Shown in pieces: positions 19,665 to 21,521 of a stretch of 50,514 nucleotides of DNA (its first letter is position 1; each line of letters starts with the position of its first letter). Under the pieces are notes generated by a model. The model ran no database searches, was not told the DNA's origin, and saw only the letters and a list, made by a program, of their open reading frames with translations. The translations under genes and the position numbers were made by a program. The DNA comes from a virus (lineage: Duplodnaviria > Heunggongvirae > Uroviricota > Caudoviricetes). The stretch is taken from IMG/VR virus record IMGVR_UViG_2534681773_000022; one strand, 5' to 3'.

Positions 19665-21521
19665 ATGGCATTTAAACACTATGATGTTGTCAGGGCGGCG
19701 TCGCCGTCAGATCTTGCGGAAAAGCTGACACATAAACTGAAAGAGGGCTGGCAGCCGTTTGGTAGTCCGGTGGCCATAACCCCTTATACCCTGATGCAGG
19801 CGATTGCAGCAGAAGGTGATGTGGTCGTCAGTGGTGCAACTGAGCCGGAGTGGTACTACGTCATCGTACTGGCCGGGCAATCCAATGCCATGGCTTACGG
19901 TGAAGGGCTTCCGCTTCCGGATTCATACGATGCGCCCCATCCGCGCATTAAGCAACTGGCCCGGCGTAACACAGTGACTCCCGGTGGTGAAGTATGCGTA
20001 TTTAACGACATCATTCCTGCTGACCATTGTCTGCATGATGTTCAGGATATGAGTACGATTAATCATCCCCGGGCTGACCTGAGCAAAGGGCAGTACGGCT
20101 GTGTCGGACAGGGCTTACATATTGCCAAAAAACTGCTTCCGTATATCCCTAATAACGCGGGGATCCTGCTGGTACCATGCTGTCGTGGTGGTTCGGCATT
20201 CACCCAGGGCACGGAGGGGACATTCAGCGAGTCCACGGGGGCCAGTCAGGATTCGGCTCGCTGGGGAGTGGGTAAGCCGTTATATCAGGATCTGCTTTTC
20301 CGCACGAAGGCAGCATTGCAGAAAAATCCGAAAAACGTTTTGCTGGCGATATGCTGGATGCAGGGGGAATTCGATATGACGAATGCCAGTTACGCCCAGC
20401 AGCCAGCAGCATTTCTTGCAATGGTACAGCAGTTCCGTGCTGACCTTGCCGGGCTGGCGGCGCAGTGTCACGGTGGAAGTCCGGCATCAGTCCCCTGGAT
20501 TTGTGGCGACACGACATACGCGTGGAAACAAGAACACGGTACGCAATATGAAGTGGTATATGGTGCATATAAAGGTAAAGAATCCCAGCAGATTTATTTT
20601 GTTCCCTTTATGACCGATGGTAGCGGAGTTAATACACCGACAAACAACCCGTCAGAAGATCCTGATATTGCCGGGTCTGGTTATTACGGTTCGGCATCCC
20701 GAACGAACAAAAACTGGGTATCATCAAATCGCCCGACGCATTTCAGCTCATGGGCGCGTCGTGGCATTATTCCCGATCGTATGGCAACTGCTATTCTGAA
20801 CGTAGCCGGTCGCACCTTAGCCTTCATTAGTGGTAAGGCACCGGAAATCAAACCCTCGCCCGGCGGCGACACTCCATCGGGGCCGTCTGATGGTGACACA
20901 TCCGTTCGTACAGTCTCCCTGCTGCCGACAGCCGGAGAGGCTGCTGCGCAGGGCTGGACCATCACCGGCGGCAGTGTTGCGCTGGAAGATGGTGTGTTTA
21001 AGGTTACCAAGCAGAGCAATAAAACTTGGTCCCTGATGCATCCGGTGGATGACGCAGTCTCCCTGCTGACACGGGGTGGCAGACTGAGCTGTAAGTTTCG
21101 ACTGTCAGGCGCACTGACCAACAACCAGTTCGGTCTGGGAATTTATCTGTATACCGATGTAGCGTTACCTGACGTCGTGGCGATGACCGGGACTGGTAAC
21201 CCGTTCCTGATGTCGTTCTTCACCCAGACCACAGACGGCAAACTGAATCTGATGCATCACAGGAAAGCAGGAAACACAAAGTTGGGCGAGTTCGGGAATT
21301 ACAGTAACGACTGGCAGACGCTGGAGCTGGTGTTCACCGCCGGCAGTGCCACGGTTACTCCGAAACTGAATGGAGTGGCTGGCCCGGCATTCCAGGTCAT
21401 AAAAGACAGTCTGACACTGGGGCTGAATGCGCTGACGCTGACGGATATTACCAAAAATGCAGCGTATGGCGTTGAGATAGAAAGTCTGGTGCTGGAGATA
21501 AATGCACCAGCATCATCATAA
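19665..21521 (+). CDS. nanS-p: Prophage sialate O-acetylesterase NanS-p (DUF1737 + SGNH/SASA esterase + C-terminal domain)
   Basis: N-terminus MAFKHYDVVRAASPSDLAEKL... (DUF1737-like) followed by YYVIVLAGQSNAMAYGEG (SGNH esterase GQSN block); the gene that follows stx in Shiga-toxin phages. Confidence 0.8.
   Translation: MAFKHYDVVRAASPSDLAEKLTHKLKEGWQPFGSPVAITPYTLMQAIAAEGDVVVSGATEPEWYYVIVLAGQSNAMAYGEGLPLPDSYDAPHPRIKQLARRNTVTPGGEVCVFNDIIPADHCLHDVQDMSTINHPRADLSKGQYGCVGQGLHIAKKLLPYIPNNAGILLVPCCRGGSAFTQGTEGTFSESTGASQDSARWGVGKPLYQDLLFRTKAALQKNPKNVLLAICWMQGEFDMTNASYAQQPAAFLAMVQQFRADLAGLAAQCHGGSPASVPWICGDTTYAWKQEHGTQYEVVYGAYKGKESQQIYFVPFMTDGSGVNTPTNNPSEDPDIAGSGYYGSASRTNKNWVSSNRPTHFSSWARRGIIPDRMATAILNVAGRTLAFISGKAPEIKPSPGGDTPSGPSDGDTSVRTVSLLPTAGEAAAQGWTITGGSVALEDGVFKVTKQSNKTWSLMHPVDDAVSLLTRGGRLSCKFRLSGALTNNQFGLGIYLYTDVALPDVVAMTGTGNPFLMSFFTQTTDGKLNLMHHRKAGNTKLGEFGNYSNDWQTLELVFTAGSATVTPKLNGVAGPAFQVIKDSLTLGLNALTLTDITKNAAYGVEIESLVLEINAPASS

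Follow-up and report, generated by a model that had tools for sequence, protein, structure and literature searches.

A full-length prophage esterase gene, nanS-p, in a stx-free late region of probable mosaic origin related to Shiga toxin phages

The late region of a lambdoid prophage in IMG/VR virus record IMGVR_UViG_2534681773_000022 contains nanS-p, a gene for a prophage sialate O-acetylesterase of 618 amino acids (aa) at 19665..21521 on the plus strand. All positions refer to the window, the whole stretch of 50,514 nucleotides (nt) that was analysed, which opens with the integrase end of a lambdoid prophage adjoining ompW in many human Escherichia coli other than Shiga toxin-producing E. 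coli (non-STEC). The late region is ordered Q, methylase, transfer RNAs (tRNAs), a variable cargo slot, nanS-p, holin, YdfR, lysozyme and Rz. We consider it probable that the locus represents a full-length, apparently functional NanS-p in a lambdoid late operon, that its lack of the Shiga toxin (Stx) genes is ordinary, and that the prophage is a mosaic sibling of the Stx phages.

The open reading frame (ORF) extends over 19650..21521 (plus strand) and is listed with 623 aa; its second in-frame ATG, at 19665, yields the 618-aa protein and matches the RefSeq start at a 99.7%-identical locus, a start at which all homologues open with M[AT]FKHYD. Three Pfam families exceed their curated cut-offs: DUF1737 (PF08410; aa 3-50, E=4.5e-16), SASA (aa 66-262, E=1.4e-12) and DUF6645 (PF20350; aa 468-578, E=3.6e-19). 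Pfam, PDB matches and alignment place a DUF1737 domain within aa 1-57 (19665-19835), a NanS-like SGNH core at aa 59-379 (19839-20801), and a lectin-like DUF6645 domain at aa 422-614 (20928-21506). When the PDB was searched by sequence, E. coli NanS/YjhS (3pt5) matched aa 59-379 with E=4.7e-122 and the crystallised C-terminal domain of a NanS-p (6yp6) matched aa 422-614 with E=9.8e-31, and a lectin-like jelly-roll C-terminal domain is present as judged at the level of sequence. The GQSNAM motif corresponds to aa 71-76 (19875-19892). Because no NCBIfam model matched the protein, the name NanS-p rests on Pfam, the PDB and the literature. The initial annotation had proposed a NanS-p with a DUF1737 domain and an SGNH/SASA esterase carrying GQSNAM, standing where NanS-p comes after stx in Stx phages; the Pfam, 3pt5 and 6yp6 matches bear out the family, and the position holds as well. 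All hallmarks that can be tested on a sequence are present: the esterase core with its catalytic residues, an N-terminal DUF1737, a C-terminus of lectin-like type, and a place for the gene in the late region that falls between Q and holin.

In RefSeq the same protein is named 'SASA family carbohydrate esterase' in hundreds of genomes, with DNA identity of up to 99.9%. It is 56-86% identical to the NanS-p proteins of phi24B, Stx2a_WGPS2, Stx2_EH1910 and PPyecE_EH1910. The NanS-p of 933W (z1466 / L0105) and that of phi24B (vb_24B_21, which is gp84) share its three domains, its catalytic blocks and its position between Q and the tRNAs on one side and the holin gene on the other; unlike in these phages, no stx lies upstream in the window. 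Identity to phi24B gp84 is 56% overall, and the C-terminal domain is another allele. The closest allele in the phage collection is that of Stx2 phage 86, with 86.9% aa identity over the full length; it differs from the window allele in its DUF1737 (type A, defined below), in a phi24B-type (Traversvirus) terminase and in coming after stx2AB. PPyecE_EH1910, a non-Stx prophage, encodes an allele that is 86% aa-identical to that of the window, and the two agree in DUF1737 type (B) and in C-terminal type. Like the window it is stx-free and carries DUF3927 and an STnc100-like element upstream; the differences concern the head, which is HK97-type in PPyecE_EH1910 and lambda-type in the window, and the content of the slot, with tciA/TerB-like and toxin-antitoxin-like genes in PPyecE_EH1910 and a truncated argO, two small RNA (sRNA) copies and iraM in the window. 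According to Saile et al., as cited in PMC8065619, EDL933 and O104:H4 carry additional nanS-p copies. In a scan of one genome per species representatives with two exact peptide patterns, and within the limits that these set, only Escherichia (E. albertii and an Escherichia sp.) yielded the complete form with three domains, and other taxa the NanS-like core alone.

The chromosomal NanS (YjhS, 3pt5) aligns end to end with the core of the window protein (aa 59-379), and the two have the Ser/His dyad and the Gln/Gly oxyanion residues in common. Chromosomal NanS consists of the core only, whereas the phage-encoded NanS-p adds DUF1737 and the lectin-like C-terminal domain. In E. coli NanS the active site is formed by Ser19 and His301, with an oxyanion hole of Gln18 and a Gly and without a catalytic Asp (PMC9063846), and the conserved blocks of 3PT5 are GQSNA, RGGSAF, MQGEFD and R-x-S-HFS (PMC10792757). 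The corresponding blocks of the window protein are GQSNA (Ser73, Gln72), RGGSAF at 174-179 (Gly175/176), MQGEFD at 232-237 and R-P-T-H359-F-S, and they are invariant among the five aligned alleles. The initial annotation had staked the enzyme assignment on a Ser/His/Asp triad, an ill-posed expectation for a family in which NanS has a Ser/His dyad (PMC9063846); the proper residues, Ser73 and His359 with the Gln and Gly residues of the oxyanion hole, are all found.

The gene is also well preserved among its relatives. The ORF is intact in 141 of the 146 related loci with room for the whole gene, and among the intact loci GQSN is kept in 141/141 and the His block in 140/141. Compared with eight other alleles, the window allele has a ratio of nonsynonymous to synonymous substitution rates (dN/dS) of 0.16-0.23 overall and, for the esterase core, of 0.10-0.19. 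Because the ORF and the motifs are kept and dN/dS is low, the gene is under purifying selection, mostly in stx-free contexts.

With Stx2A and Stx2B as queries, tblastn over the entire 50.5-kb window found no stx gene or remnant (best E=0.55, chance matches), in agreement with the absence of the toxin genes stated in the initial annotation. The stxA/stxB operon 3' of Q and the tRNAs, the hallmark of an Stx-converting phage, is thus missing, and the prophage is not an Stx-converting phage. The same annotation regarded the gene as retained although the toxin genes are absent. This view does not stand, since the stx-free state is the majority state for nanS-p. By megablast, which counts 'places' with partial copies included and may miss divergent stx subtypes, the window nanS-p has 7604 places, which are distributed over 2234 of the 5426 complete E. 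coli genomes (about 41%), with a median of 2 and a maximum of 14 places per genome, and 1392 genomes have a place that covers >=80% of the gene. Among the complete genomes the stx2 operon has 740 places (599 genomes) and stx1 has 360 (349 genomes), which makes 1100 stx places in at most 948 genomes. Therefore at least 1286 genomes have nanS-p-like DNA without detectable stx, and at least 85% of the nanS-p places cannot adjoin stx. Among IMG/VR loci, none of the 61 evaluable ones with the nanS-p allele type of the window has stx upstream; in a second IMG/VR set, collected with phi24B gp84 as the query, stx accompanies each of the three DUF1737 types and each of the four head types described below. 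The stx-free nanS-p prophage is the usual situation in E. coli and no anomaly. It has been described before (PMC10462455; bioRxiv 10.64898/2026.05.13.724894), and less than 3% of chromosomal PasA sRNA copies situated beside esterase genes adjoin stx (bioRxiv 10.64898/2026.05.13.724894). A stx-free nanS-p is thus already known and ordinary, and a further instance adds little to what has been documented as the rule; nanS-p is unfit as a marker of Stx-phage ancestry.

Plus-strand terminator-like hairpins occur between Q and nanS-p at 16368, 16696, 18551, 18764 and 19013, and one more lies just past nanS-p; the region contains 16 terminator-like sites, compared with 5.6 +/- 3.1 in shuffles. A scan for sigma-70-like promoters gave no plus-strand match in 19405-19664, upstream of nanS-p, although such a scan is weak evidence either way. 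On this basis a dedicated sigma-70 promoter for nanS-p was set aside. Expression of other nanS-p alleles rises with the late genes on induction (PMC8065619 among published work). Because five hairpins follow Q, no promoter match lies directly upstream and induction has been published for other alleles, we infer Q-dependent late transcription: transcripts of nanS-p would start at PR' and, as for other late genes, depend on antitermination by Q.

The N-terminus of NanS-p is the DUF1737 domain and, as read by eye from the sequence, has no hydrophobic signal-like stretch. Chromosomal NanS is periplasmic and carries a signal peptide. With DUF1737 in place of a signal peptide, export would depend on lysis by holin and endolysin, and NanS-p would meet the 9-O-acetylated sialic acids of mucin only upon lysis of induced cells. 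It could leave the cell either as a free protein or bound to the capsid by DUF1737, as is phi24B gp84. Released NanS-p would then strip mucin sialic acids of their 9-O-acetyl groups, and its lectin-like C-terminal domain may assist in glycan binding, as proposed for 6yp6 (PMC10462455, PMC8065619), and the de-O-acetylated sialic acid would become usable by surviving lysogens. For other alleles, esterase action on 5-N-acetyl-9-O-acetylneuraminic acid (Neu5,9Ac2) or on O-acetyl sialic acids of mucin has been demonstrated (PMC8065619), and the growth benefit from mucin sialic acid that was initially proposed for the window allele is consistent with that work.

The DUF1737 domain invites a different view of the protein, as a structural part of the virion. 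In phi24B, gp84 (NanS-p) has been identified as a capsid decoration protein by cryo-electron microscopy and proteomics (2026 preprint): DUF1737 (aa 1-54) forms hexamers that occupy the central hexon of each T=9 facet, Tyr42 serves as their anchor, and cleavage of the protein occurs after Gly54. The first 34 residues of the window protein are nearly identical to those of gp84, and divergence sets in exactly in the anchor-loop region, aa 35-55, where PVAITP---YTLMQAIAAEGDVV of the window aligns with ALISTAGYGAEFIQPVVSEGSISSP of gp84. The window loop has another sequence and is 3 residues shorter, with a Tyr at position 41 (Y41). The window protein also has a first linker that is 14 residues shorter, without the SISSP motif that adjoins the cleavage site of phi24B. 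The capsids differ as well. The major capsid protein of phi24B is PF13252, and its T=9 head of the capsid_3 podovirus type has no counterpart in the window, whose head consists of lambda gpE/gpD.

A survey of 160 IMG/VR loci, which were gathered with two biased queries and are related by descent, distinguished three loop types of DUF1737: type A (STAGYGAEF, as in phi24B), type B (ITPYTLMQ, as in the window, or …ITP-YTLMQ… when aligned with …STAGYGAEF… of phi24B), and type C (SYTDDGAALIQ). The same loci contain four head modules, namely lambda gpA/gpB/gpC/gpE, an HK97-like head with a protease-capsid fusion (H2), a head with a gpA-type terminase and a ClpP-capsid_4 fusion (H3), and the phi24B capsid_3 type. 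Type A was found with the phi24B-type head in 6 loci and with H2 in 1, type B with the lambda head in 33, with H2 in 13 and with H3 in 2, and type C with H3 in 7. In an exploratory test on 28 dereplicated combinations, Cramer's V between DUF1737 type and head type is 0.87, a value reached in 0/5000 permutations. The esterase core and the C-terminal domain lie physically between DUF1737 and the head genes, yet their clusters give values against head type of only 0.43 (p about 0.10) and 0.47 (p about 0.02), respectively. The DUF1737 variants thus seem to track head type better than the intervening domains of NanS-p do, which hints at capsid display beyond phi24B, as would be expected of a domain constrained to fit its capsid. 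The named phages agree with this pattern: Stx2 phage 86 has a window-like esterase (86.9%) yet a type A DUF1737 and a phi24B-type terminase, and Stx2a_WGPS2, Stx2_EH1910 and PPyecE_EH1910 have type B, HK97-type heads and long tails. For the Stx2a phages, Pascal et al. 2023 (PMC10462455) had already listed three variants of DUF1737. Within a literature search that was not exhaustive, the association with head type is the only element of the present analysis that may be new. A strict one-to-one match of DUF1737 type and capsid family was rejected, as type B occurs with three head types and three loci are exceptional.

Two related proposals follow, and both are tentative. The first, which we regard as possible but doubtful, is that DUF1737 is an exchangeable capsid-docking module whose loop is matched to the head, type A to the T=9 capsids of Traversvirus, type C to ClpP-capsid_4 and type B to lambda/HK97 heads, and that NanS-p, the stx-free window copy included, is displayed on the virion as a mucin-sialate esterase and lectin. 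The second concerns the window itself: its NanS-p might primarily be a virion component, with DUF1737 anchoring the esterase outside the lambda-type capsid for interaction with mucus or the host surface, a role compatible with a metabolic benefit. This too falls well short of probable. The hexamers and Tyr42 anchor seen in phi24B, the confinement of the difference from gp84 to the anchor-loop region, the association of type A with phi24B-type heads (6/7), of type C with ClpP-capsid_4 heads (7/7) and of type B mostly with siphoviral lambda/HK97-type heads, the contrast in Cramer's V, the named phages, and the persistence of DUF1737-only remnants in some prophages all speak for it. However, type B is found with major-capsid families of three unrelated kinds, and a few loci depart from the pattern (one of type A with H2, two of type B with H3), so that the relation is no strict lock-and-key, and the loci are phylogenetically non-independent and come from two biased queries. 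In addition, the DUF1737 of phi24B binds a single kind of hexon, the one that lies on the icosahedral threefold axis in its T=9 lattice. By capsid geometry, a T=7 capsid of the lambda type has no hexon on that axis, and the site that phi24B uses is therefore lacking. The missing SISSP motif and the shorter first linker point in the same direction. If true, the covariation of DUF1737 and head would extend the 2026 phi24B result on capsid decoration to common commensal and extraintestinal pathogenic E. coli (ExPEC) prophages, and NanS-p would be a virion-surface module for interaction with mucus in a large share of E. coli lambdoid prophages, beyond its roles in lysogen metabolism and as an accessory of Stx phages.

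Upstream of nanS-p, the segment that begins at the tRNAs is a variable cargo slot. Its left breakpoint lies within the third tRNA gene, argO (UCU), of which the 5' half remains (18134..18176, plus strand; alignment, blastn, ARAGORN). An alignment to Stx2a_WGPS2 is near-identical across ileZ, argN and the first ~40 nt of argO; it is identical up to ...CCTTCTAAGCA, after which homology is lost inside the anticodon loop. The blastn blocks against five references all stop at 18176, and ARAGORN finds an intact tct tRNA at the place of argO in loci L003, L168 and L169 and none in the window. Four nt past the breakpoint starts a DUF3927 mini-ORF of 38 hydrophobic residues with a GTG start (18180..18296, plus strand; Pfam PF13064, E=3.3e-14, 53 bits compared with a cut-off of 25), and the equivalent locus is likewise annotated in RefSeq. 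The junction of truncated argO and DUF3927 is found in 330 complete E. coli genomes. It is followed on the plus strand by two copies of an STnc100/PasD-like sRNA element, the first at 18386..18579 (Rfam RF02076, 140.5 bits, gathering threshold 47) with an intrinsic terminator at 18551-18570, and the second at 18855..19043 (RF02076, 132.8 bits) with an intrinsic terminator at 19013-19034. On the minus strand, divergent from nanS-p, lies a prophage iraM anti-adaptor gene of 111 aa (19069..19404; NCBIfam NF007393, 162 bits, cut-off 121), whose product is 73% aa-identical to the iraM of Stx2_EH1910, placed there between stx2B and nanS-p. The slot is thus defined to the base by a tRNA cut in its anticodon loop, and the toxin position is re-used by DUF3927, STnc100/PasD-like sRNAs and iraM.

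Two further observations concern the content of the slot. IMG/VR locus L061 (99.3-99.7% identical) has a single STnc100 copy, and 18574-18842 behaves as a copy-number polymorphism; this spacer contains a 55-aa ORF (18583-18750) without a family match and a terminator at 18764-18783. As an anti-adaptor, iraM stabilises RpoS, which suggests that the prophage could influence the general stress response of its host.

The two sides of the slot have different affinities. In Stx2_EH1910 the order is Q, methylase, three tRNAs, stx2AB, iraM and nanS-p. The left arm of the window (15406-18176) is 94.4% identical to this phage (94-95% to Stx2 phages) and ends in the argO anticodon loop; 690 bp of the window (18177-18866) then replace 1452 bp of Stx2_EH1910, which hold the argO 3' half and stx2AB. 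Homology resumes at the STnc100-like element 86 nt past stx2B, with only ~70% identity; in blastn the window from 18867 matches L003 from 5724, 86 nt past the stx2B stop. By comparison, identity of the right arm (18826-19700) to the stx-free loci L168 and L169, from strains MY504 and 2003-3014, is 97.4-97.6%; in these loci an intact argO precedes about 560 bp of other cargo, after which come DUF3927, one STnc100 element, iraM and nanS-p. The DUF3927 segment at the breakpoint belongs to the modules found in stx-free prophages, PPyecE_EH1910 for example. The ileZ-argN-argO cluster, of which ileZ and argN are intact in the window and argO is cut at the anticodon loop, is typical of Stx phages, though not universal among them, and occurs in stx-free prophages too. 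Because the flank identities differ (94% on the left, ~70% on the right), a simple stx deletion from a known Stx phage is disfavoured and was discarded as the best reading. The most economical account is that a left arm resembling that of Stx2 phages and a right arm of the stx-free type were joined by an old event, and a mosaic sibling lineage of the Stx phages appears more likely than a recent loss of stx. The initial annotation had offered both a loss of stx and a precursor or sibling lineage; the sibling lineage is the part favoured by the right arm, and recent loss is the less likely one.

It remains unlikely, then, that the prophage is a former Stx-converting phage from which a deletion or illegitimate recombination took the argO 3' half together with stxAB and left nanS-p over. 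Such an origin would agree with the Q-methylase-ileZ-argN-argO(5') arm, 94-95% identical to Stx2a phages and ending abruptly inside argO, with the replacement of argO 3' and stx2AB sequence before homology returns, and with the position of iraM in Stx2_EH1910; repeated stx loss was also raised as one possibility by the preprint on Pas sRNAs (bioRxiv 10.64898/2026.05.13.724894). Against it stand the lack of any stx remnant by tblastn in the window, the inserted DUF3927 segment, which is standard in stx-free prophages such as PPyecE_EH1910, the fixation of the truncated-argO junction in 330 genomes, and the absence of stx from the evaluable loci of this allele type (0/61). The right arm, ~70% identical to the Stx phage and 97.5% to stx-free prophages that have an intact argO and other cargo, argues likewise, and the truncation could therefore equally have removed that other cargo. 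In strains MY504 and 2003-3014 an unannotated ORF of ~108 aa (MVFSVLNIYHSYGVGRVNIDEASG...) lies exactly at the stx position (L168 about 3700-4100, L169 about 3700-4090).

Several points weigh against the preferred reading of a functional NanS-p in a mosaic sibling of the Stx phages. The left arm is nearer to Stx2 phages (94-95%) than to the stx-free relatives with an intact argO (87-91%), and argO was cut, by deletion or recombination, exactly at the place of stx, which leaves some probability to an ancestor that carried stx. The census of nanS-p and stx counts places rather than whole genes. We infer the esterase activity of the window allele from homologues, by analogy with which it would also depend on the late promoter and be released by lysis. 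The promoter and terminator scans deliver consensus matches only, and the promoter-like matches in the region (5) are not above the shuffled expectation (6.5). A chromosomal nanS in the host, which is not visible from the window, would make the phage esterase redundant.

That nanS-p is a decaying, non-functional remnant in a cryptic prophage is highly improbable: disrupted copies do occur, namely those of 5 of 146 related loci, one with an internal deletion in vB_EcoS-640R1 and one with a frameshift in strain MY504, but the ORF of the window is uninterrupted and has every catalytic block, a dN/dS of about 0.2 speaks against decay, and the late, lysis, head and tail genes around it are unbroken and keep the order of annotated genomes in which none of them is flagged as a pseudogene. 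In vB_EcoS-640R1 (L005, 4214-4575) and in E. coli hits H52-H54, the counterpart of window 19884-21379 is deleted from late regions that are otherwise 97% identical. The deletion leaves an ORF with DUF1737 only, that is, a domain of the capsid-binding type without the esterase in several genomes.

The remaining genes of the late region, all on the plus strand unless stated otherwise, follow the lambdoid order. The late antiterminator Q (15464..16285, 273 aa; Pfam PF03589 Antiterm, E=1e-49) is 94.4% DNA-identical to the quuQ-type Q of Stx2a phage Stx2_EH1910. Just 3' of it, a GC-rich hairpin with a T-run (16368..16383) matches the terminator consensus and, from its position, is a candidate tR' terminator. 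A DNA N6/N4 methyltransferase gene (16860..17909; Pfam PF01555, E=2.3e-44) has a counterpart at the same position in Stx2 phages. The first tRNA, with a CAU anticodon, is an ileZ-type tRNA-Ile2 (17959..18034; ARAGORN, Rfam tRNA 72.5 bits), and the second an argN-type tRNA-Arg (UCG) at 18044..18120 (ARAGORN, Rfam). As a nuance of annotation, ARAGORN reports the first as Met (CAU), whereas phage and RefSeq records give tRNA-Ile (ileZ, with a lysidine-modified CAU).

Between nanS-p and the holin gene, the terminator scan detected a 13-bp hairpin with a T-run (21604..21632). The fold of this intergenic region (21522-21645) has z=-2.4, and Rfam gives only chance-level matches in it (E 0.26 or worse). 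It is the position at which the PasA/PasC sRNAs are described in prophages of enteropathogenic and enterohaemorrhagic E. coli (EPEC/EHEC). The lysis genes comprise a class II holin of the P21 S type (21672..21887; Pfam PF04971, E=9.5e-33), a YdfR/DUF1327 protein (21892..22206; PF07041, E=2.7e-39), an endolysin of the phage lysozyme family (22262..22795; PF00959, E=1.1e-24), and an Rz spanin whose start codon is uncertain (22777..23250; PF03245, E=3.9e-41). The lambda-type head module (26184..32898; ORFs and Pfam PF05136, PF01343, PF02924, PF03864) consists of a gpA-like TerL (26184-28154), a lambda-family portal (28341-29933), an S49 protease (29923-31428), the gpD decoration protein (31465-31812) and the gpE major capsid protein (31870-32898).

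Two convergent, slightly overlapping genes lie between Rz and the terminase, at 23667-24287 (plus strand) and 24229-25296 (minus strand). They are named 'sce7726 family' and 'beta family' proteins in RefSeq, and the pair matches the PADLOC profiles 'cll' (E=4e-31), 'PD-Lambda-2_C' (E=4e-32) and 'beta'. Situated in a patch of low GC content (about 42%), the pair is a candidate anti-phage defence cargo. Elsewhere in the window, Rfam matches at gathering level were obtained for DicF (4537-4588, minus strand, 76.7 bits), the sok antitoxin of hok/sok (11914-12089, plus strand, 117 bits) and IS009 (49225-49422, plus strand, 217.5 bits), which are typical RNA genes of Qin/Rac-like prophages. Finally, a contig of the E. 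albertii type strain NBRC 107761 (L173) was compared with window 13711-23867; its late region, including nanS-p, is 98.9% identical, which shows that the late module was recently exchanged between Escherichia species.

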